From: a virus
Lineage: Duplodnaviria; Heunggongvirae; Uroviricota; Caudoviricetes
IMG/VR virus record: IMGVR_UViG_2600255005_000007
Span: 1 to 8,899 of that record
Length of the DNA: 8,899 bases
Direction: 5' to 3' (one strand)
Each line of letters starts with the position of its first letter. Position 1 is the first letter of the stretch. Positions 1 to 8,899 of this stretch are shown piece by piece. Both the position numbers and the translations under genes were made by a program. The notes under the pieces were generated by a model that worked only from the letters and a program-made list of their open reading frames with translations, ran no database searches and had not been told where the DNA came from.

Positions 1-477
1 GTGATAAAGCGTGTTTTGCAGGCTGCGTTCGATGTCATCAACGCTGCGCCGCTGGCTGGCAGAGAGCGAGGCAATAAACGCTTCGGCTTTTTCCGGCGAC
101 TGCTGGCGATAAAGATTCGCCAGCCCGCGCACGGCGTTAGTGTTGCTACTGTCCATACGCAGCGTCTGCTGGTAATAGCGTTCAGCGGCGGGGTAATCTT
201 TGCGCGCCATCGCCACATCGCCCAGCCCCAGCACCGCATAGCTGTCGGCGTTATCGACATTGCGCGCCTGCTGGAACAGGCGTTCTGCCCGGTCGGGATT
301 ATTGGCTTTCAGCGCAGCATCGCCCTGCTGGATCGCCAGCCAGTAGCGATTCACCTTCAGCAGACTGTTCCATTTGTCGTTGTTGCTGCTGTGCGGATCC
401 AGCGCGAGGGCTTTTTCCAGATTCGCCACCGCATTAGCACGATCGCCATTCTGAGAATACGCCTGCCCCAGCGCCCC
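1..477 (-). pseudogene. bcsC: Internal fragment of cellulose synthase operon protein C (BcsC, TPR region). The N-terminal side is cut at 477/478; the gene continues past the window start.
   Basis: Reverse-complement translation of 477..1 reads GALGQAYSQNGDRANAVANLEKALALDPHSSNNDKWNSLLKVNRYWLAIQQGDAALKANNPDRAERLFQQARNVDNADSYAVLGLGDVAMARKDYPAAERYYQQTLRMDSSNTNAVRGLANLYRQQSPEKAEAFIASLSASQRRSVDDIERSLQN. I recognise this as the central TPR part of enterobacterial BcsC, nearly identical to my recollection of the E. coli protein. It is missing from the ORF track because it has no start or stop inside the window. Similarity ends abruptly at 477/478. Confidence 0.85.
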
Positions 478-2088
478 CGGAACGCGGCGAAAACATCAGA
501 GACGAATGCAGGTAACAGCGCGAAAGCGGCAGCTTCTTCAAAAACAGCCGCACAAAATGCAGCAACAGCGGCAGAACATTCAGAGACAAATGCCCGTGCG
601 TCAGAGGAAGCCTCCGCAGACAGTGAAGAGGCTTCCCGCCGTAATGCAGAGTCAGCCGCTGAAAATGCCGGAATCGCCACCACAAAAGCGCGGGAGGCCG
701 CAGCAGACGCAACAAAGGCCGGGCAGAAAAAGGATGAGGCTCTGTCGGCAGCGACACGAGCAGAAAAGGCGGCAGACCGCGCAGAAGCCGCAGCGGAAGT
801 GACTGCAGAGCCCTATGCGAATATAGTGCCGCCGCTGCCTGATGTATGGATACCGTTTAACGATACACTGGATATGATTACGGGGTTTTCGCCATCATAT
901 AAAAAGATTGTTATTGGTGACGATGAAATAACAATGCCAGGCGACAAGATTGTTAAGTTTAAACGTGCTTCAACAGCAACGTATATTAATAAGTCCGGCC
1001 AACTCAAGCTTGCTGAAGTTGATGAACCGCGATTTGAGCGCGATGGCTTATTGATTGAAGGACAGAGGACAAATTATCTGAGGAACTCAAATAAACCAGA
1101 CTCATGGACTGTTCATTCCGCACTGAATAAAACATTTGGCACTGATAAACAGGGGTTCAATTATGCCACGGTGACACCCACGGAAAGTATAGTGGGAACA
1201 ACAGGTGGCTATACTGTGCATGGTGTGGTTGCAGCAGACAGATTCCCGCTGGCAAGTGGTGAATGTTTCACTTTTTCGTGCCGGGTTAAAGGCGCTAAAG
1301 CACGATGCAGGTTAAGAGTTTCAGTTATTATTGGTGGAACAGATACATTCTCTGCTGACTCTTATCTTGATCTGGATACCCGGATCGCAACAGTAAGCGG
1401 TAATACATCCCTTATAACAGCCAAAGCTGAACAACAGGGCGAGTGGACCTACTATGAGGCCACTTATACAGCTAATACGGACATTGATACCGTTAACTGT
1501 GCTTTTTATATGACAAATAAAATAAGTAATGAGCCATTCTATGATGACTCAACATTAACCATGACGACGCCGCAAATTGAACTGGGCAATACGGCATCGT
1601 CATTTATTGTAACTACAATGCCAACAACACGCGCAAGTGATGTGGTTACTATCCCATCGCAGAATAACCTGTCAACACGGCCTTTTACGGTATTGTGCGA
1701 AGTAAGCAGGAACTGGAGTACACCGCCCAATGTTGCGCCAAGGATATTTGATGTTGGAGGGCACAGTATTGATGATAATTATTTATCGCTGGGGTTTGTT
1801 TCAACAGGAAAGATAAGCGCCAACGTAGGAATGGTTCAGCCACAAATTTCCTCAGATGGAGAAAGGTTCATTGTGGGTGTGAGAGCTAAATCTGATTTAT
1901 CAGTAAATGCAATATGCAGTGGTAATTATACAACAAACCTTAATGGTAAAATATTTGGAGTTACAGCAACATCGTACCGGTTTGGTGGGCAGACCGCAGC
2001 AGGAACGCGTCATTTGTTTGGACACATCAGAAATTTCAGAGTCTGGTTTAAAGAATTAAATGACAGGCAAATCAAGGAGGCAGTATGA
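478..2088 (+). CDS. Phage side tail fibre protein, 5'-truncated: Ala/Ser/Thr/Glu-rich shaft repeats followed by a distal receptor-binding region
   Basis: From 478 the frame reads RNAAKTSETNAGNSAKAAASSKTAAQNAATAAEHSETNARASEEA..., the low-complexity shaft repeat typical of lambdoid Stf-like fibres. A globular distal part follows, about 420 aa, ending ...TRHLFGHIRNFRVWFKELNDRQIKEAV. That tail resembles the usual end of LamG/ConA-like jelly-roll domains. The TGA stop at 2086-2088 overlaps the next ATG. There is no start codon of its own; the upstream open frame (1-477) is bcsC antisense. Confidence 0.8.
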   Translation, partial: RNAAKTSETNAGNSAKAAASSKTAAQNAATAAEHSETNARASEEASADSEEASRRNAESAAENAGIATTKAREAAADATKAGQKKDEALSAATRAEKAADRAEAAAEVTAEPYANIVPPLPDVWIPFNDTLDMITGFSPSYKKIVIGDDEITMPGDKIVKFKRASTATYINKSGQLKLAEVDEPRFERDGLLIEGQRTNYLRNSNKPDSWTVHSALNKTFGTDKQGFNYATVTPTESIVGTTGGYTVHGVVAADRFPLASGECFTFSCRVKGAKARCRLRVSVIIGGTDTFSADSYLDLDTRIATVSGNTSLITAKAEQQGEWTYYEATYTANTDIDTVNCAFYMTNKISNEPFYDDSTLTMTTPQIELGNTASSFIVTTMPTTRASDVVTIPSQNNLSTRPFTVLCEVSRNWSTPPNVAPRIFDVGGHSIDDNYLSLGFVSTGKISANVGMVQPQISSDGERFIVGVRAKSDLSVNAICSGNYTTNLNGKIFGVTATSYRFGGQTAAGTRHLFGHIRNFRVWFKELNDRQIKEAV

Positions 2089-2363
2089 AAGATTTAACTT
2101 TGAAATTTCCTGGTAACAGAGAGTTTAAATCCTTCCTGTCATCTCTTGACTGGGAGGAAGATGAAGACCTCCAGAATAAACTGTTAGTCGATGAAATTGG
2201 TTTCACCTACACAGAAACAGGGGTAACTGAAGAGGGAGAACCTGTCTGTATCCGGAATAACGGTTATTTTGTCAACATTCGCATTCTTGATGACTTGTTT
2301 GATGTTTCTGTATTCTCTGATTATGTCGTGGAGCTGGAAACACCGCTTCGGGAATGGAGCTGA
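2085..2363 (+). CDS. Small acidic protein (92 aa), translationally coupled to the tail fibre gene. Possibly a fibre chaperone or accessory protein; function unknown.
   Basis: ATGA start/stop overlap with the tail fibre gene. Strong SD (caAGGAGGcagtATG). Acidic composition (DWEEDEDL, TEEGEP). It does not match the classic Tfa sequence I know, so the function is inferred from position only. Confidence 0.6.
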   Translation: MKDLTLKFPGNREFKSFLSSLDWEEDEDLQNKLLVDEIGFTYTETGVTEEGEPVCIRNNGYFVNIRILDDLFDVSVFSDYVVELETPLREWS

Positions 2364-2375
2364 AAGGAGGAAATA

Positions 2376-2669
2376 ATGGATATAAGCCCCTTACTTCATG
2401 CACTTTGTGCTGTGGCTGCGCAGATACTGGTTGGTCTTTTTACCGGAAACTGGGCTTACGGAGCGATAGCCGGTTGTACGTTCTTCATTGCGCGTGAACA
2501 TACCCAGGCAGAATATCGCTGGATTGAAATGTTCGGGCATGGCAAGCGAATGAATATGCCGTGGTGGGGCGGATTTGATCCGCGCGCGTGGGATGTGGCA
2601 AGCCTGATGGATTTTGCTGTGCCGGTGGTGGCGTGTCTGCTGGTCTGGCTGTTGGTTAATCGTGGGTGA
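2376..2669 (+). CDS. Small integral membrane protein (97 aa, about 3 hydrophobic segments), prophage accessory or moron-like
   Basis: Strong SD (gaAAGGAGGaaataATG). Hydrophobic stretches are ISPLLHALCAVAAQILVGLFTG, AYGAIAGCTFFIA and LMDFAVPVVACLLVWLLV. It sits 12 nt after the previous stop. The 3' end lies next to the junction with the recombinase fragment, so the native C-terminus is uncertain. Confidence 0.6.
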   Translation: MDISPLLHALCAVAAQILVGLFTGNWAYGAIAGCTFFIAREHTQAEYRWIEMFGHGKRMNMPWWGGFDPRAWDVASLMDFAVPVVACLLVWLLVNRG

Positions 2670-2679
2670 AAAAAGGTGG

Positions 2680-3033
2680 GCTGTATATGCAACGGAGGAA
2701 GAAACCCGGGAGAAAGCGCGGATACAGAAACCGGGTGCCTGTCACATCTTCCGGCACTCGATGGCAACGCAGATGCTGGACAACGGCGCAGACACGCGGC
2801 ACATCCAGGCGATCCTCGGCCATGAGAAGCTGGAGACGACGCAGATCTACACGCGGGTAGCCATCGGTCACTTACAGGAAGTTCACGCGCTGACGCACCC
2901 GGAAGAGCAGGACGAGACGTGGACGGATCGGCACGTTGCGGATGCGGTGGCAGAGCCGCAGACGCGCCGGGAGCGTAATCACGCAGAGATGGAGCGGGCG
3001 CTGGTCAGCAGGAAACGCCGCCGGAGACGCTGA
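2680..3033 (+). pseudogene. C-terminal catalytic fragment of a tyrosine recombinase/integrase; the N-terminal two thirds are missing
   Basis: The translation contains ...KARIQKPGACHIFRHSMATQMLDNGADTRHIQAILGHEKLETTQIYTRVAIGHL. This gives the H-x-x-R box, the LGH box and the catalytic Tyr (IYTRV) of the XerC/D-phage integrase superfamily. The first catalytic Arg and the core-binding domain are absent. The upstream part of ORF 2614-3033 only overlaps the membrane-protein gene in another frame. The left boundary is approximate, about 2670-2700. Confidence 0.8.
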
Positions 3034-3110
3034 TGCAGGCCGGAAGCGTGATCATCGCCGGACTGCCTGAAAAGTTAGCGGGCGATCCCTGTAAGGCCGT
3101 GGGGTGAGGT

Positions 3111-3154
3111 GCAGGGCAGACAACCGCCTTCCCTGGCGGTTGACTGCCCCCTGC
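3111..3154. repeat. Imperfect inverted repeat / hairpin 1
   Basis: Perfect 8-bp core caaccgcc (3121-3128) / ggcggttg (3135-3142) with a 6-nt loop, ttccct. The outer arms gcagggcaga / actgccccctgc extend the pairing with one A-A mismatch and a 2-nt bulge. Confidence 0.7.
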
Positions 3155-3174
3155 CAGCGGAGTGCGCGGGGGTA

Positions 3175-3240
3175 AATGCCGTTCGCCCCGTGGAGGCAGG
3201 CGTGTCCCATGCGGCCACGGCGCACGGGGCAAACGTCATT
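3175..3240. repeat. Imperfect inverted repeat / hairpin 2
   Basis: The 18-nt arms aatgccgttcgccccgtg (3175-3192) and cacggggcaaacgtcatt (3223-3240) pair at 16 of 18 positions around a 30-nt loop. Confidence 0.7.
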
Positions 3241-3242
3241 CA

Positions 3243-3339
3243 ACATAATGCGGGGGATTATGCGCACTCTCGCCGGGTGGCAACGGCGGCGAACCCGACC
3301 CGCTGTGCGCGGCTCGTGTTCGCACAATCCGCATTATGT
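3243..3339. repeat. Imperfect inverted repeat / hairpin 3
   Basis: Perfect 11-bp outer stem acataatgcgg (3243-3253) / ccgcattatgt (3329-3339). After a GGG bulge, an inner stem attatgcgcac (3257-3267) pairs with gtgttcgcaat-type sequence (3318-3328) at 9 of 11 positions. The apical region is about 50 nt. Confidence 0.7.
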
Positions 3340-3975
3340 CTTGCGCCCCCGCGTTCAGCCCCTTAACCAGTGCCACGCGCAGCAGCTCGCTGGCGCTCGC
3401 TCCTGCCGTCTCAGCGGCGGTGTCCTTCCTCAGCGCCGCAGTCGCCGCCATCCCTGGCGGCTCCGGTGCCGTTCTGCGGCGGCGTCATCGTGTGGCAGTC
3501 AGTCAGAAAAGGGTGTCGGCCTGGCGGCCTCCGCTTGTAAGGGCTTTATGCCCGCCCGGCGTCGTCTGGCTGCGGCGGCTCGTGCCGCGCAAAAAGGCCG
3601 CGCGTCACTCGTTCCCGCCTCGCCAGCTTCCGCTGCCCGCCCCGGTCCGGTGTGGTCATGCAAAGGCCAGCTCCGGTCAGGCAGCGGTGCCACAGAGCGC
3701 CGTTCCGTCGCTTGCGGACTCTCTGCCGCCCGCACCCGCAGACCCCGCGCCGTGGCCCCGCCATGCCGCCGGAGGCGGCCTGGCGGCCCCCCGTCACGGG
3801 TTGCCGGAAACGGACTTAGTGGAAAGCGGAATGACAGGTTCGTGGCGGTGGTGATATGGTGAGCGGGCGTGAAAACGCGCGTCGGGAAAGCCGGGTTAAC
3901 GTGCTGTTAAATAATTAAAAGGTGATAGCCGTGAAGCCAGAAACGGCGCGGGCGGTAGCGTGTTAAAAAGTATGA

Positions 3976-4401
3976 CCCGCACCGGATCGTCCCGATGACC
4001 CGATAGGGCTGAGAGGCGGATTAAACTTATACCAATACGCGCCTAATCCAGTAAACTGGATCGATCCTTTGGGTTTGAAATGTGGGCAACCTGAATGGAC
4101 AAATCATGGATACAAACATTTTCCTCCAAAAAACAAATCATGGAAGGATATAATTAAATCAACAAAATCAGGCCCGGCAAAATATTCTCCAGATATTGAT
4201 ATTAAAACGTTGGAATACGATGTTTTTAATACAGGCACACCTGTTACGAACGGTAAACCATGGAAAGTAAAAGATATGGGAAAAGTTATTGGGGCCAGTG
4301 AGGGTAAAGAATCTCAATGGGTTCGAGTTGAACTTAGCGGTGGGACAATACATGGACATCCTATATCAATCGATGAATTCCGAAGGCTAACAACATCATG
4401 A
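3976..4401 (+). CDS. Orphan Rhs C-terminal toxin tip 1: core-end remnant plus a toxin domain of unrecognised family, about 110 aa, with no start codon of its own
   Basis: The open frame reads [49 protein letters not shown]...[27 protein letters not shown]. DPIGLxGGxNxYxYxxNPxxxxDPxGL is the hallmark boundary between the Rhs/YD core and its variable toxin tip. The 'start' in the ORF track (4069) is only the TTG encoding a Leu of DPLGL. Upstream, tatgacccg (YDP) sits in another frame, so the remnant is frameshifted. Confidence 0.8.
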
Positions 4402-4691
4402 ACATTGATTTCTTAGGAAAAAAAGGGAATATAGTTTTTAATGACTTCTCCCTGAAACAAAGCATCCCTCTTAATGAACAGCGAGATGAACTTAAGGAAG
4501 ATATGCTCCAGGTTGAATATCCTGGTGGGTATCTTTTGGATGTTGGGTGGCGACCATCTTTTGATATAAATGGGAAGTTTTATATTTGTTTAATAAAGGA
4601 TTTTGATTGGGATTATCCCATTTATAATGGTTCTGCGAAAGATATTGTCTCATTATTATTTGAAATTAACCAAGCTATAAATAAACTTTAA
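4398..4691 (+). CDS. Putative cognate immunity protein 1 (97 aa)
   Basis: ATGA overlap with the toxin stop. AT-rich. The small cytoplasmic-looking protein sits immediately 3' of an Rhs-CT, the canonical immunity position. A terminator hairpin follows. Confidence 0.65.
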
Positions 4692-4700
4692 ATAAACTTT

Positions 4701-4740
4701 AAAAAAACTGGGAAGAAAATTAAATCTTCCCGGCTTTTTA
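4701..4740. terminator. Bidirectional rho-independent terminator between immunity 1 and SymE-like copy A
   Basis: Stem ctgggaag (4708-4715) / cttcccgg (4726-4733), 8 bp including one G-U pair, with a 10-nt loop. It is flanked by an A7 run on the left (4701-4707) and T5 on the right (4735-4739). Confidence 0.7.
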
Positions 4741-5006
4741 TTATTTAACTCTCGTTCAGCACACTAAACATCCCGTTCCGCATCCCCTTAACCGCCTGTT
4801 TGACCTGGTAAAGTTCCCTGCGCAGTTCCTGTACTTCGTTGTTATCCGCTAGCAGGATCAGGCAACCTTCCGAGATCTTCACGGTAACGCCCGTGCCGAT
4901 CTCAAATCCCGCTTCTCTCAGCCATTTGGCGCTGATTTTGATCACCGGCGTGTCGCTTCGGTTGGGCAGATAGCCCACGGTACAGTGGCGCTGTGTTTTG
5001 GAAATG
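4719..5006. repeat. Direct repeat copy A (288 bp): right half of the terminator plus the SymE-like ORF
   Basis: Aligns base for base with 7311-7599, with 7 substitutions and 1 T-run indel. Identity ends sharply after ...gtgttttggaaatg. Confidence 0.9.
4745..4978 (-). CDS. SymE-family (AbrB/SpoVT-fold, type I toxin-like) protein, copy A, probably 5'-truncated
   Basis: The translation ...TVGYLPNRSDTPVIKISAKWLREAGFEIGTGVTVKISEGCLILLA... matches the SymE signature as I recall it from E. coli SymE ([48 protein letters not shown]). The only available start is the GTG that encodes the Val of TVGY, and it has no SD. The frame stays open upstream to a TAA with no start codon. Confidence 0.7.
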   Translation of the reverse strand: MGYLPNRSDTPVIKISAKWLREAGFEIGTGVTVKISEGCLILLADNNEVQELRRELYQVKQAVKGMRNGMFSVLNES

Positions 5007-5159
5007 ATATTTTTGTATTTAACCTGCTGATTAGATAGTAAAATAAACTTCGTGCAGATAGCTTACTTTGTCAGGGTGTGGCGGTAGCGTATGAACTATG
5101 ACGTGATGGTTTTAGTGATTTATAGACGAAACTGACAGTACGATCCGGACTTCGATTAG

Positions 5160-5621
5160 ATTGCGCGATTTGACCCGATAGGGCTGGCGGGGGGGCTGAA
5201 TCTTTATCAGTATGCGCCGAATCCGTTAAACTGGATCGATCCGCTTGGATTAAGTTGCTCTAGTGATGCAAAAAAATTATCTGGTAATTTAGGATCAGCA
5301 CCAAGTAGTCACTATCGACCACATCATATGGTTATGTCTAATTCCAGCGATGTGCGTATGCGGTGGTTACGTAGAAGGATGGATCGGTTAGGTATAGATA
5401 TAAACGATTCCAAAAATGGTGTATGGCTACCCAAAAACTCTGATTATCGGTTACCGGGGACAAAAGCTACTGCTCATGGTGGTGAAGGTGTACATGGAAA
5501 TGCATATAAACAACATGTGTGGGATACGTTGAAAAATGCAAGAACAAAAGCTGATTTTGAAGCAGGGCTTGCGCAACTTAAAGTAGAGCTAAGTACTGGC
5601 AAAACGTTTCCTGTCCAATAA
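5160..5621 (+). CDS. Orphan Rhs C-terminal toxin tip 2: HNH/EndoVII-superfamily AHH-type nuclease domain, no start codon of its own
   Basis: The open frame after TAG (5157-5159) reads [40 protein letters not shown]...[10 protein letters not shown]...[16 protein letters not shown]...[15 protein letters not shown]. The xHH dyad, the downstream NG-x-x-LP and the H-x-x-H-x-x-Y fit the AHH nuclease toxin family, here with PHH. The M at 5328 in the ORF track is internal, in the middle of the HH motif. Confidence 0.8.
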
Positions 5622-5634
5622 GGAGTATGATCAC

Positions 5635-6252
5635 ATGAAAGATTTTCTGAAAAGTTTATATGAAGATTACAATGGAAAGTATTCGGAACTGATAGAACAG
5701 ATGAACGGAGAAAAGGCTACTTGTAGATGGGGGTATGGTGTTATGCCTGCCTTCTCTATAGAACCTTATGCATCCGAGCTTTTAGGTCATAAACCGGGAC
5801 GAATGTTGAAAAATAACTCAATCGCAGGAGTAAATAAACAATGCTATTATGTTGATGAACAAAACAGGATAATAGAAGGAATTACATACGCCAGCCATCG
5901 TAAGAAAGATAATGAATGGATTGTGTATAGAAATTTTTATATTTACCAAGAAAATACCATTCTTGGGCTTTTGTATAGTAGTACATTTGAAGATAGTAAA
6001 AACACAGGATTGAATAAGATTGTATTTATAAGCATTGATAATAAATTAATAAATAATAAGTATACTTTCATGTATGATGGGGAGTATTCTGAGGTAGATT
6101 ATATTTATAATAAAGATAAAATAATAAAAATAGACCAAAGGGTATGGTCTTCGTTTTATTTTGAACGCACTTATCTGATAGAGTCAAATGATCCATTGAT
6201 TATTAATGAATACTTAGAAAATAGTGGGAACATCAGGATCTACCCTACTTAA
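5635..6252 (+). CDS. Putative cognate immunity protein 2 (205 aa)
   Basis: Good SD (taAGGAGtatgatcacATG) 13 nt after the toxin stop. Very AT-rich. Immunity position. I recognise no domain. Confidence 0.65.
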   Translation: MKDFLKSLYEDYNGKYSELIEQMNGEKATCRWGYGVMPAFSIEPYASELLGHKPGRMLKNNSIAGVNKQCYYVDEQNRIIEGITYASHRKKDNEWIVYRNFYIYQENTILGLLYSSTFEDSKNTGLNKIVFISIDNKLINNKYTFMYDGEYSEVDYIYNKDKIIKIDQRVWSSFYFERTYLIESNDPLIINEYLENSGNIRIYPT

Positions 6253-6345
6253 TTTATCAAAGTAAGAGACTAATATATGGACTATGATGCGGCTGTTTCA
6301 GGGATATGCGATTGAAGCCAGTAGTATGATCCTGCGATGGGGTAG

Positions 6346-6801
6346 ATTCACCGTCCTGATCCGATAGGGCTGGCGGGGGGAATAAACCTCTATGCTTATG
6401 CGCCGAATCCAGTAAACCACATTGATCCTCTTGGGCTATCTTGTGGAAAGGTTGGTAACGTTGAATATCGTAATTTTGAGCGTTCTCCGGGAATGTTTTC
6501 TCGGTTATTAAAGAATAAACGTGACTTTGATTATGTTGCCAGATATAACATCTCAAGATATAAAGCTACATTGAGAAAAAATAATCCGGATGGTTTTGGT
6601 AATATTAGCCATTATTTCGATGGTGTAGATGCAAAAGGAAATAAAGTCGTTATTGAGGTGGCGAATACAGGGCATAAATCTTCAAGCGGTGGTTTTGAGC
6701 CTCCACATATTAAAATTCAAATAAAAGACGCTGATAACAAAGTGATACATAATGCCAAATATTTTTTGGAAGATGATATATATAGAATTACGGGCAAATA
6801 A
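6346..6801 (+). CDS. Orphan Rhs C-terminal toxin tip 3: toxin domain of unrecognised family, about 125 aa, with no start codon of its own
   Basis: The open frame after TAG (6343-6345) reads [76 protein letters not shown]...PPHIKIQIKDADNKVIHNAKYFLEDDIYRITGK. It has the same core/toxin boundary motif. The M at 6493 in the ORF track is internal. Confidence 0.8.
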   Translation: MHRPDPIGLAGGINLYAYAPNPVNHIDPLGLSCGKVGNVEYRNFERSPGMFSRLLKNKRDFDYVARYNISRYKATLRKNNPDGFGNISHYFDGVDAKGNKVVIEVANTGHKSSSGGFEPPHIKIQIKDADNKVIHNAKYFLEDDIYRITGK

Positions 6802-7260
6802 ATGAAAAATATTAGAGAGTTAAATAATGCAGAATTCTCCGGGCTTATTAACAATGCTTTACCATTCTTACATATTAATCCTATAAGCGAAGCTGTTTGT
6901 ATTCATGCAGAAGCTTATAAAAGTGGTATTGATGTTAACTATATCCGTTGCAACGTTGACTGGGAGGGGTTTTCTTCTTTAACTGAAGCGTTGGAAACGT
7001 TATACCATGAATTATTTAAAGATGGTATTCCATCAGGCGAATTGTTGTTTTTTTACCCGTTTGATAGAACAAAGAAAGGGAATTATGGTGTTATACTGGA
7101 ATCATCTCAGCTATTAGATTTCTTAATAAAAGAGCATTTGAAGATTTATCCTGAATGTTTTAATGTAGAAATGTGTAGCTTCGGTTTTTATTTTATAGAT
7201 CACGAAATATTTTACGGCATGGAACATCCTGATTTTTTATATAGTTTCTGTGTAAGATAA
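6802..7260 (+). CDS. Putative cognate immunity protein 3 (152 aa)
   Basis: The ATG directly abuts the toxin TAA (taaATG), implying translational coupling. AT-rich. Immunity position. A terminator hairpin follows. Confidence 0.65.
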   Translation: MKNIRELNNAEFSGLINNALPFLHINPISEAVCIHAEAYKSGIDVNYIRCNVDWEGFSSLTEALETLYHELFKDGIPSGELLFFYPFDRTKKGNYGVILESSQLLDFLIKEHLKIYPECFNVEMCSFGFYFIDHEIFYGMEHPDFLYSFCVR

Positions 7261-7297
7261 TTAATAAAGTGAGGAGTATATTTCTCTTTCTTAATCG

Positions 7298-7332
7298 CCG
7301 GGAAAGGTAGATTAAATCTTCCCGGCTTTTTT
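7298..7332 (+). terminator. Rho-independent terminator after immunity 3, homologous to the one at 4701-4740
   Basis: Stem ccgggaa (7298-7304) / ttcccgg (7319-7325), followed by gc and T6 (7327-7332). Confidence 0.7.
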
Positions 7333-7599
7333 ATTATTTAACGTTCGTTCAGCACACTAAACATCCCGTCCCGCATCCCCTTAACAGCCTGTTTAACCTG
7401 ATAAAGTTCCCTGCGCAGTTCCTGTACTTCGTTGTTATCCGCTAGCAGGATCAGGCAACCTTCCGAGATCTTCACGGTAACGCCCGTGCCGATCTCAAAT
7501 CCCGCTTCTCTCAGCCATTTGGCGCTGATTTTGATCACCGGCGTGTCGCTGCGGTTGGGCAGATAGCCCACGGTACAGTGGCGCTGTGTTTTGGAAATG
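7311..7599. repeat. Direct repeat copy B (289 bp)
   Basis: See copy A. The repeat ends at the same ...ggaaatg, after which the primase-like frame begins. Confidence 0.9.
7338..7571 (-). CDS. SymE-family protein, copy B, probably 5'-truncated. The ORF track extends it to 7619.
   Basis: Same sequence as copy A with 2 amino-acid differences (N/D, and terminal S/R). The 16 extra N-terminal codons in the track (7572-7619) begin with a GTG that lies outside the repeat, on the antisense of the primase fragment, and has no SD. I treat that extension as fortuitous. Confidence 0.7.
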   Translation of the reverse strand: MGYLPNRSDTPVIKISAKWLREAGFEIGTGVTVKISEGCLILLADNNEVQELRRELYQVKQAVKGMRDGMFSVLNER

Positions 7600-8824
7600 G
7601 TGGGCCGCACTGCTGGCACACGGCGTCAGGCAGGTACTGATCGCCTACGACAACGATCCGGCGGGCAATGAGGCGGCGGTGAAACTGGCTTCTTCCTTAG
7701 CCGCTTCCGGGATCGCCACGTTCCGCGTACTGTTCCCGGCGGGCATGGATGCGAACGGTTATCTGTGCAGTGTGGCAGAGCCGGAACAGGCGTTCAGTCT
7801 GTTGCTGGATGGCGCGGTGCCCATGAGTGACCTGGCCGATGCGGAGAGTATCGCGCCGCAGGCCAGCGCGGAGCCTGCACACCTGACTTCATTAGCTGCC
7901 GGGGTTGCGGTCTTACCCGCAGCCGCCGCGCCTGCACCGGGCGTCAGCGTGGAAACCCTGGCCGATGGCGAACTGATGGTAGCCTTACCCGGCGAACGCT
8001 GGACTATCAGGGGCGTAAGCCGCAAACCGAACGTCGCCGCGATGAAGGTCAATGCGCAGGTGCTGGACACCAACAGCGGCGTGGTGTTCGCTGATGCGGT
8101 GGATATGATGAGCGCCCGCAGCCGTTCCGGTTATGCGCGGGCCGCAGCGGCAGAGCTTGGGCTTGCCGAAGGCGACCTGCGCCGTTCGCTGGGTAAGGTG
8201 CTGCTGGCGCTGGAGCACTGGCAGGCGGCACCGGAGCCGGAGAGCGTCGCCCCGGAGATGACGCCGGAAGATCGGGAGGCGGCGCTGGATCTGCTGCGCG
8301 ACGAGTGTCTTGCCGGGCGCATCGCTTCTGATATGGCGGCGTGTGGCGTGGTGGGTGAGTCCACCAACCTGACGGCGGCGTATCTGGCGGCGGTGTCACG
8401 CAAACTGGAGCGCCCGCTTGCCGTTCTCATCCAGTCGTCGAGCGCGGCGGGTAAGTCCAGCTTAATGGATGCGGTGCTCAATCTGATCCCGCCAGAGGAA
8501 CGGCTGCAATACAGCGCCATGACCGGGCAGAGCCTGTTCTACCTCGGCGAAACCAACCTGCAACACAAGATCCTCGCCATCGCAGAAGAAGAAGGTGTGC
8601 GCCAGGCGGCGTATGCGCTGAAACTGTTGCAATCAGACGGGGAACTGACCATCGCCAGTACGGGCAAGGACGACGCCAGCGGCAACCTGGTCACCAAACA
8701 GTACACGGTGAAAGGCCCGGTGATGCTGATGCTGACCACCACGGCGATCGACGTCGATGAAGAACTGTTAAACCGCTGCCTGGTGCTGACGGTGAACGAG
8801 TCGCGGGAGCAGACGGAGGCCGAA
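7598..8824 (+). pseudogene. Internal fragment of a Toprim / P-loop NTPase primase-helicase-like protein of an integrative or conjugative element, truncated at both ends
   Basis: VLIAYDNDPAGNEAAVKLA...FRVLFPAGMDANGYL looks like the distal Toprim DxD region. Later, LIQSSSAAGKSSLMDAV is Walker A-like and HKILAIAEEEG is Walker B-like. The codon usage is GC-rich and coding-like, and all minus-strand ORFs here are shadows. There is no native start because the frame enters from the SymE repeat. At the 3' end the reading frame runs into the rrn leader and stops there fortuitously. Confidence 0.7.
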
Positions 8825-8899
8825 CTGCTCTTTAACAATTTATCAGACAATCTGTGTGGGCACTCGAAGATACGGATTCTTAACGTCCTCGGACGATAA
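8824..8899 (+). promoter_or_regulatory. rRNA operon leader including the boxA antitermination element; 16S rRNA expected just downstream of the window
   Basis: actgctctttaacaatttatcagacaatctgtgtgggcactcgaagatacggattcttaacgtc is identical to my recollection of the E. coli rrn leader downstream of P2. boxA tgctctttaacaa is at 8826-8838. The following small hairpin differs in a compensatory way (cgtcctcggacg versus cgtcgcaagacg), consistent with a natural rrn variant. Confidence 0.8.

Follow-up and report, generated by a model that had tools for sequence, protein, structure and literature searches.

A covarying three-hairpin module with dif-like sites downstream of an XerC-family recombinase gene in Rhs toxin loci: a candidate folded recombination site

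We analysed an 8,899-nt stretch of DNA (the window; positions 1 to 8,899 of IMG/VR virus record IMGVR_UViG_2600255005_000007), which is an Rhs toxin locus of Escherichia ruysiae type, 99.98% identical to E. ruysiae locus L007 over 2706-7602 (loci fetched for comparison are cited by L number). Downstream of a truncated gene for an XerC-family tyrosine recombinase, the window carries three adjacent hairpins (H1, H2 and H3; Table 1), which are kept by compensatory mutation from Escherichia to Betaproteobacteria, and two inverted sites resembling the Xer site dif pair with each other within H3. Based on these sequence comparisons, we tentatively read the hairpins as a Xer-type recombination site that would work as folded single-stranded DNA (ssDNA), together with accessory hairpins, all within a cis-acting region of a mobile element residing in Rhs arrays. 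We give this reading slightly less than an even chance.

A preliminary description of the window had pointed out three neighbouring imperfect inverted repeats with cores of 8, 8 and 11 bp, and a repeat finder recovers them in the same places with the same cores. The arms of H1 (3114-3128/3135-3149) are 15 nt at 93%, those of H2 (3175-3192/3223-3240) are 18 nt at 89%, and the outer arms of H3 (3243-3253/3329-3339) are 11 nt at 100%, with more pairing inside. Folding of both strands, which that description had proposed, places the 251-nt stretch 3100-3350 ahead of dinucleotide shuffles on either strand: with RNA parameters z is -3.06 on the plus strand (1 of 200 shuffles as good) and -4.66 on the minus strand (0 of 200), and with DNA parameters z is -3.55 on the plus strand. 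The letters of the window and a scan agree with the earlier statement that no T-tract follows any of the three stems. It is also correct that no conserved open reading frame (ORF) accounts for the region. ORFs overlap the region on both strands, but a coding explanation was rejected because the 172-aa ORF at 3336-3854 has no similarity to the equally placed 171-aa ORF of Photorhabdus, and the indels among homologous tails (the non-coding DNA that follows the recombinase gene) are not multiples of three, one of them a 35-nt indel within H3. The three-hairpin observation is confirmed far beyond chance, and the strongest evidence for it is comparative.

Twenty enterobacterial copies were aligned (alignment A1), and RNAalifold recovered the hairpins from them, with compensatory double changes in 21 of 54 predicted pairs. 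In a curated structure of 53 pairs, 90.7% of the cells are paired compared with 29-38% for slid controls, both sides have changed in 23 pairs compared with 3-7, and the covariation score is 0.216 compared with at most 0.06; none of 500 shuffles attained the observed pairing and covariation values. H2 has changes on both sides in 12 of its 18 pairs, and its arms are wholly different in Escherichia and Xenorhabdus with complementarity kept. H1 has an invariant base, a covarying distal helix and a conserved loop; the distal part and the loop are absent in the Xenorhabdus lineage, and the same design recurs in relatives whose XerC is about 45% identical. Stems without compensatory conservation, or a region lying inside a gene of intact relatives, had been named beforehand as the outcomes that would speak against a structured element, and neither was found.

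A pattern scan of metagenomes returned 35 loci, of which five are AT-rich chance matches without the structure and 30 are genuine. Across 35 non-redundant sequences the consensus fold of the minus strand is a three-way junction composed of a closing helix (P0), H3 and H2. P0 (GCGGGGG/CCCCCGC) is also present in the minimum free energy fold of the window's minus strand. At its pair 7-210, 31 sequences have GC and four have CG, the swap occurring in the betaproteobacterial lineage. The GCGGGGG at 3166-3172 complements both the 3' strand of P0 (3346-3352) and the central CCCCCGC of dif-like site 1 (3250-3256), and an alternative pairing or a switch is therefore possible. Hairpins resembling H1 and H4 (the latter a second hairpin with the TCCCTG loop) flank the junction also where XerC is about 45% identical, and the H4-like hairpin follows P0 in distant relatives. 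The module was found in Enterobacterales, other Gammaproteobacteria and Betaproteobacteria, with XerC there only 43-62% identical. It directly follows xerC in 22 of the 30 genuine metagenomic matches and in all genome loci that have it, and H3 occurs once per element unit, in plus orientation in every fetched locus. A 3-5-nt bulge lies between tiers 1 and 2 in eight of ten representative H3 folds (among these it is absent in L030; it is also absent in L125), and the tip ranges from a 5-bp stem-loop to about 45 nt. Betaproteobacterial H3 sequences form 43-45 predicted pairs (2-3 of them G.U) in 101-107 nt, leaving only a short bulge and a small tip unpaired; they are only 70-80% identical between relatives, with the AACATAA/TTATGT base kept. 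Such near-complete pairing despite divergence fits a homogenisation of the arms at the DNA level.

One arm of H3 is formed by dif-like site 1, which matches the arms of E. coli dif at 20 of 22 positions (10 of 11 in the XerC arm and 10 of 11 in the XerD arm), with a spacer of 9 nt where dif has 6. The dif 28-mer was confirmed in MG1655, where it lies beside hipA, and a match of this quality occurred in 0 of 200 shuffles. All 19 homologous tails have an equivalent site with 17-20 of 22 matches and spacers of 7-10 nt, and the metagenomic variant L125 has the canonical 6-nt spacer. Of the two arms, the XerD-type one is conserved (9-11 of 11) and the XerC-type one variable, which is also the case in natural Xer sites. 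The XerD-type arm of site 1 extends into the H2/H3 junction. Site 2 is weaker, at 14 of 22 as read from the sequence, which is under the threshold of 15 of 22 arm matches applied in the scan of the homologues. The two sites are inverted relative to each other and pair within H3 on one strand, as expected of an attP of CTXphi type, and gammaproteobacterial metagenome-assembled genomes carry the same inverted pair. The XerC-type arms of the two sites vary together and stay complementary, which argues for pairing and not for mere binding of protein to duplex DNA.

The two strands are not equivalent in this structure. In the curated helices, A.C mismatches on the plus strand (G.T or G.U wobbles on the minus strand) amount to 33 cells and at least 11 pair/clade events, and G.T mismatches on the plus strand to 5 cells and two events. 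The minus strand is the more stable one in 23 of 23 sequences with RNA parameters and in 19 of 23 with DNA parameters. The folded strand appears to be the minus strand, complementary to the coding strand of xerC, and this bias of mismatches and stability toward one strand argues against a purely duplex or cruciform role.

In the mechanism that we propose, the minus strand would fold as DNA, and the two inverted dif-like sites with their unequal central regions (9 and 6 nt) would pair with each other, so that a single duplex site of Xer type arises, bulged in its central region and variable at its tip. H2 and P0 would hold this site in the three-way junction, and H1 and its twin H4, with their conserved CAGGGA loops, would be accessory hairpins for protein recognition. 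The element's XerC paralogue, possibly with host XerD, whose participation is proposed because the XerD arm is near-canonical, would bind the duplex H3 site and exchange one strand pair with a partner site; the exchange would integrate, excise or resolve circular copies of the unit. Integration beside a resident copy would lead to near-identical tandem arrays. The comparisons themselves establish the structure with its conservation and covariation, the dif-like sequence, the asymmetry between strands and the linkage to xerC; we infer that the folded molecule is DNA and that the recombinase binds it, and likewise the partner site and the product.

Table 1. Features of the window discussed in the text (coordinates in the window)
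Feature	Coordinates	Strand	Sequence or remarks
3' part of rhs gene (small ORFs follow)	1-2088		
xerC 3' fragment	2706-3033	+	last ~108 codons and stop of XerC-family tyrosine recombinase; 5' part deleted in this genome
Tail	3034-3996	+	66-77% GC, non-coding; right end meets Rhs core-end fragment at 3997
Leader between xerC stop and H1	3057-3110	+	CCGGACnGCC ... AAAGTTAGC ... TCCCTGT; conserved as far as Photorhabdus
H1	3114-3149		base helix GGCAG/CTGCC, purine-purine mismatch, GC-rich distal helix, loop TCCCTG (CAGGGA on - strand)
P0 closing helix, 5' strand	3165-3172		CGCGGGGG; pairs with 3346-3353
H2	3175-3240		18-nt arms, strong covariation
dif-like site 1	3238-3268	-	AGTGCGCATAA-TCCCCCGCA-TTATGTTGAAT; 9-nt spacer; forms one H3 arm
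H3	3243-3339		tier 1 ACATAATGC/GCATTATGT, 3-nt bulge, covarying tier 2 ATTATGCG/CGCACAAT, terminal part of variable length
dif-like site 2 (weaker, inverted)	3317-3344	+	TGTTCGCACAA-TCCGCA-TTATGTCTTGC; 6-nt spacer; pairs with site 1
P0 closing helix, 3' strand	3346-3353		CCCCCGCG; from consensus folds
Conserved block with H4	3434-3470		36/37 identical to Photorhabdus australis (L011)
H4, second TCCCTG-loop hairpin	3445-3460		CCGCCATCCCTGGCGG; direct repeat of H1 tip
Conserved block D	3706-3742		identical in Escherichia copies; 3-6 mismatches in Xenorhabdus

The closest precedent is the attachment site of CTXphi, in which attP1 (12-nt central region) and attP2 (7-nt) lie inverted about 90 bp apart and, in the (+) single strand, form a forked hairpin that XerCD recombines with dif (PMC3089051). 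H3 shares with it the inverted dif-like sites with unequal central regions that pair to a bulged duplex Xer site, and the highly conserved XerD-type arm. The helix-turn-helix (HTH) gene of the element also has the CTXphi repressor family RstR as its top match, at 68 bits, under the cut-off of 80. Differences are also evident, since no HUH replication protein was seen among the element's proteins, the element lacks phage genes and close relatives in IMG/VR, its two sites are about 48 nt apart instead of about 90, and the site lies within a three-way junction with a second hairpin, flanked by CAGGGA-loop hairpins. Unlike the integrative mobile elements exploiting Xer (IMEX), which have no recombinase and rely on host XerCD, it encodes its own Xer-family recombinase, and its copies lie in Rhs arrays and not at dif.

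Integron attC sites are also recombined as folded single strands, on a plan of basal box, bulge, second box and variable tip. H3 resembles them as an imperfect hairpin of about 60-100 nt in which the basal box is conserved, unpaired bases separate it from a second box that covaries, and the tip varies; arrays of promoterless cassettes beside an Xer-related recombinase are common to both systems. Unlike attC, however, its basal boxes read AACATAA...TTATGT(C) in 35 of 35 sequences and not RYYYAAC/GTTRRRY; the recombinase scores 124.6 bits against the TIGR02249 cut-off of 265 and 71 against the NF011946 cut-off of 435. In the enterobacterial elements the module occurs once per recombinase unit and not once per cassette, and the cassettes, whose joints are at DPxGL codons, consist of C-terminal toxin/immunity pairs of Rhs. 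H3 combines the logic of the CTXphi attP with a likeness to attC but belongs to neither, as it has its own Xer paralogue, is not located at dif, and differs in core motif and recombinase subfamily.

Several points weigh against a folded recombination site. The element proteins revealed no enzyme that generates ssDNA (HUH Rep or relaxase): Pfam, NCBIfam and PHROGs scans of the three proteins found no HUH domain, the C-terminal part of the primase being weakly modelled. Within the H3 fold, the XerD-type arm has just 7 of its 11 positions paired. An attB-like partner was not found, and no second dif-like site in the left end of the element or in the cassettes was convincing at 15 of 22 or more. 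Integrated copies lie in Rhs loci (rhsE-pptA in E. coli), about 57 kb from dif in MG1655, and the mappable junction of the unit is at DPIGL codons and not at the hairpins. At the rhsE locus of E. coli, on the right replichore, the element is oriented toward dif, from which it follows by inference that the best-folding strand is the leading-strand template there and is less often single-stranded. Wobble tolerance on one strand is also expected of RNA. Finally, the tails of Acidimicrobiia, Holophagae, Myxococcota and Bacteroidia have simple palindromes, ACATAA-N3-5-TTATGT and CGATAA-N6-TTATCG, which could work as ordinary duplex sites. In L046, L051, L056 and L066 the palindromes CGATAA-N6-TTATCG and TTACATAA-N3-5-TTATGTAA are about 45-60 nt apart, and they resemble homodimeric forms of the XerC-type and XerD-type arms.

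An alternative, which we regard as unlikely, is that the hairpins are a replication origin or priming site, recognised on single-stranded or unwound DNA by the element's primase-helicase and starting replication of the excised circle, with the dif-like site being a separate feature. The element does encode a DnaG-type primase (TIGR01391) fused to an AAA+-like P-loop domain, so that an origin must exist somewhere, and the tail is the largest non-coding region of the element. H1 and H4 are repeated hairpins with the same TCCCTG loop, flanking the junction also in distant relatives, and this loop contains CTG, the start trinucleotide of E. coli DnaG. The near-identical tandem copies and the many broken assemblies also suggest a multicopy state. 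Several adjacent hairpins near a replicon-encoded primase recall the single-strand initiation (ssi) hairpins of the phage G4 origin and of RSF1010 (ssiA/ssiB), which are ssDNA hairpins recognised by primase, those of RSF1010 lying on opposite strands, but there is no sequence resemblance to them. TCCCTG is not significantly enriched in the window either (7 found, 3.3 expected, 10 of 200 shuffles as high), the CTG is on the plus strand whereas the mismatch asymmetry favours folding of the minus strand, and the distal part and loop of H1 are missing in the Xenorhabdus lineage. The tail (66-77% GC) has no iterons and no AT-rich unwinding element, and an origin would leave the 20/22 match to dif and the paired inverted sites unexplained.

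It is quite improbable, in our assessment, that the module is a structured noncoding RNA (ncRNA), a minus-strand transcript lying antisense to xerC at its 3' end, which would regulate the recombinase or the cassette or serve as a cofactor of the recombinase. A compact three-way junction with a conserved closing helix, conserved joining nucleotides and covarying stems would suit an RNA, as would the tolerance of wobbles (67 G.U cells on the minus strand to 12 A.C cells, or 32 to 12 without one invariant pair) and the better folding of that strand in all 23 sequences with RNA parameters; three deletion variants, moreover, drop xerC and the primase yet keep the module beside the cassette. But the Rfam scan that had been suggested earlier gave nothing at the gathering threshold, and at E <= 10 its top matches had at most 18.5 bits and E >= 1.6, so a known RNA family was rejected. 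No sigma-70-like promoter is found on the minus strand within 2900-4100. The betaproteobacterial helices of 43-45 bp with 2-3 wobbles are unusual for RNA, and RNAs with such long near-perfect helices would be RNase III substrates. The stems are also composed of recombinase half-site sequences, which together with these near-mismatch-free helices and the missing Rfam family and promoter argues for DNA.

We consider it very doubtful that the region is a duplex Xer site like cer or psi, at which host XerCD or the element's XerC would resolve circular multimers, with the palindromes as accessory binding sequences that never fold. The format is similar: an XerC arm, a spacer longer than 6 bp and an XerD arm and, beside them on a small replicon, accessory DNA of a few hundred bp. 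Compared with the 28-30-bp cer/psi format (6-8-bp spacer), the arms match but the spacer is mostly 7-10 nt. The 6 nt of L125 and the simple palindromic sites of distant phyla favour a duplex site. In cer the spacer is 8 bp and the accessory DNA about 180 bp (PMC5357621). However, cer and psi work as duplexes together with PepA and ArgR or ArcA, whereas here the pairing itself is conserved. We know of no folding or covariation in cer and psi. Duplex sites should keep their sequence, but H2, the distal part of H1 and the tip of H3 change fully and yet stay complementary, and a mismatch bias toward one strand is not expected of duplex DNA.

The roles that the preliminary description had offered included folded single-strand recombination or origin sites and the terminal recognition region of the element. 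The former are the best supported, by the inverted dif-like sites and the compensatory stems, and the latter is rejected because the right junction lies about 650 nt downstream of the hairpins, at 3996|3997. To map this junction, the orphan downstream of the tail in E. coli D6 (L001) was compared with a full-length rhs gene of E. coli (L083), and identity starts exactly at GACCCGATAGGG, the Rhs DPIGL codons. One unit is therefore a core-end fragment, a C-terminal toxin, an immunity gene, symE, the HTH gene, the primase gene, xerC and the tail. The hairpins are internal to this tail, 80-300 nt past the xerC stop, and both E. ruysiae copies of the element stay homologous across its whole length.

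The recombinase fragment in the window is genuine, as had been thought: it is the 3' end of xerC, and it aligns with the intact xerC of E. coli D6 (L001 5228-6337) from L001 position 6001 on. The full-length gene, intact in E. coli D6 and E. ruysiae, codes for 369 aa. The protein belongs to the Xer family, with 528 bits against NCBIfam NF002331/PRK01287 (cut-off 371) and a Phage_integrase catalytic domain (PF00589, E = 1.6e-37); it scores about equally with the XerC and XerD equivalogs (228 and 223 bits, both under cut-off), and among solved structures XerD (1a0p) is the nearest. The intact order in E. coli D6 is symE(-), HTH(-), a 940-aa 'DNA primase'(+), xerC(+), the tail and an Rhs core-end fragment. 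The first 360 aa of the large protein are a DnaG-type primase with zinc ribbon and Toprim (TIGR01391), and its C-terminal P-loop region is Pfam PF27228 in a precomputed annotation. A rather weak structural model of the C-terminal region is closest, in generic matches, to the AAA+ ATPases of MCM, RuvB, clamp loaders and the PrimPol of African swine fever virus (pLDDT 64.6, TM <= 0.27), and the protein thus looks like a primase fused to an AAA+/MCM- or superfamily 3-like ATPase. An anti-phage defence system was rejected, as PADLOC gives only generic similarity to DnaG domains, and so was a phage origin of the element, as IMG/VR has no close relatives of the recombinase.

The window also has a second copy of the primase gene (7602-8817, within 7586-8899, junction 7602), which lacks the HTH gene and its first ~288 codons owing to a 1.5-kb deletion relative to E. 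ruysiae L006 (2213 joins 3710). Two copies of symE (type I toxin) on the minus strand (4702-5006 and 7297-7600), delimit element units on the left, and each copy begins at a bidirectional terminator hairpin. The gene is found together with the element in Escherichia, Citrobacter (L008), Photorhabdus and Xenorhabdus.

Tails of about 830-950 nt, GC-rich and non-coding, follow the gene for this recombinase, and blocks of their nucleotide sequence are conserved to Photorhabdus and Xenorhabdus, where XerC is only about 57-62% identical. The only sigma-70-like promoter match in 2900-4100, ATGACA-18-TATGGT plus a TG extension, is at 3831-3860 on the plus strand. It lies immediately before the orphan cassette and could drive expression of the orphan immunity gene. 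Fragments of about 85 nt from the Rhs core end (DPIGL...DPLGL codons), at 3997-4083, 5171-5252 and 6357-6440, head successive orphan toxin/immunity cassettes, and the first of them adjoins the tail exactly at the DPIGL codons.

Relatives of the recombinase number more than 558 in one-genome-per-species data, with hosts in Enterobacterales, Pseudomonas, Betaproteobacteria, Myxococcota, Acidobacteriota, Actinomycetota, Verrucomicrobiota, Planctomycetota and Bacteroidia. A homologous primase gene directly precedes the recombinase gene in nearly every locus fetched, often with a divergent HTH gene. The ORFs between units open with Rhs/YD core-end motifs and then vary toward the C-terminus, in Actinomycetota and Myxococcota too. 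The HTH, primase-ATPase and xerC genes make up a three-gene module that is interspersed with Rhs toxin cassettes in many phyla. Between phyla, primase identity is 40-75%, and in Photorhabdus cinerea (L013, 2900-8300) the element is mostly 52-69% GC within flanks of 20-37% GC, which suggests either recent spread or a strong compositional constraint.

Tandem duplications of whole units, 98.7-100% identical and with periods of 6.6-9.5 kb, occur in several phyla (L013, L020, L023, L033, L046 and others; >= 99.8% identity in four of the five named loci), and many assemblies break in the tail, 190-560 nt past xerC. Three independent deletion variants (at 2706 in the window, at ~456 in L125, and at 263 in L101 and 5723 in L117) have lost the HTH gene, the primase gene and most or all of xerC, and all three retain the three-way junction, the tail and the downstream cassette. 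In the Verrucomicrobiota locus L080, a tail segment of about 360-400 nt is repeated (6955-7313 and 8821-9182; 89%) before two successive toxin cassettes, and only the first copy follows xerC, a layout that is integron-like. An 8758-bp circular record from Shigella flexneri (NZ_CP055112, L002) is one complete unit (core-end fragment, ADP-ribosyltransferase (ART) toxin, immunity gene, symE, HTH, primase, xerC and tail) together with ISEc1, and may represent either an excised circle or an assembly error. In the IncHI2 plasmid record pGD27-37 (MN232191, L003), 266 and 236 nt of tail (2356-2621 and 4897-5132) flank ISKpn21, with N at both outer junctions and a duplicated 30-bp end of the insertion sequence (IS). 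The same IS occurs at the same backbone site in another plasmid without tail flanks, and no other plasmid has the tail sequence. The record is probably an assembly chimera of a chromosomal IS insertion, and on that judgement an independent mobile unit of about 500 nt and a mimic of the IncHI2 oriT were rejected. A lead from a Bryopsis chloroplast with rhs, primase and recombinase genes was also rejected, the genes being unrelated.

Part of the element's context may already have been described: a single sentence in a preprint (bioRxiv 10.64898/2026.07.13.738213) cites Martinkus 2026 (Curr Biol 36:176) for what, to judge from that sentence, are probably the same loci and recombinase. Our literature search found the element in this one citing sentence only and, within what it covered, no description of the hairpin module.

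The diversity of Rhs and related polymorphic toxins arises when C-terminal toxin/immunity cassettes are swapped. This swapping has been attributed to homologous recombination, and to our knowledge no dedicated machinery has been established for it. We suggest, as a rather unlikely extension of the folded-site reading, that a self-encoded Xer recombinase and primase-helicase would move or amplify units of Rhs core end, toxin and immunity gene through DNA folded into a three-way junction, as an uncharacterised class of cassette-mobilising systems that crosses phyla. If true, this would provide an enzymatic basis for the 'C-terminal displacement' of Rhs proteins and for the arrays of orphan toxin/immunity genes, through a site that mixes features of the CTXphi attP and of attC. 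Overall, a conserved module of folded DNA (or RNA) with dif-like sites is tied to a recombinase-primase element that extends from Escherichia to Actinomycetota, Myxococcota and Verrucomicrobiota. Should the module be a folded Xer-type site, it would add a further example of tyrosine recombinases acting on folded single strands, beside CTXphi-like phages and integrons, and would offer a directly testable mechanism for the mobility and tandem amplification of toxin cassettes. Under the readings as an origin or a resolution site, too, it would define the cis-acting region of a widespread and apparently little-described element.

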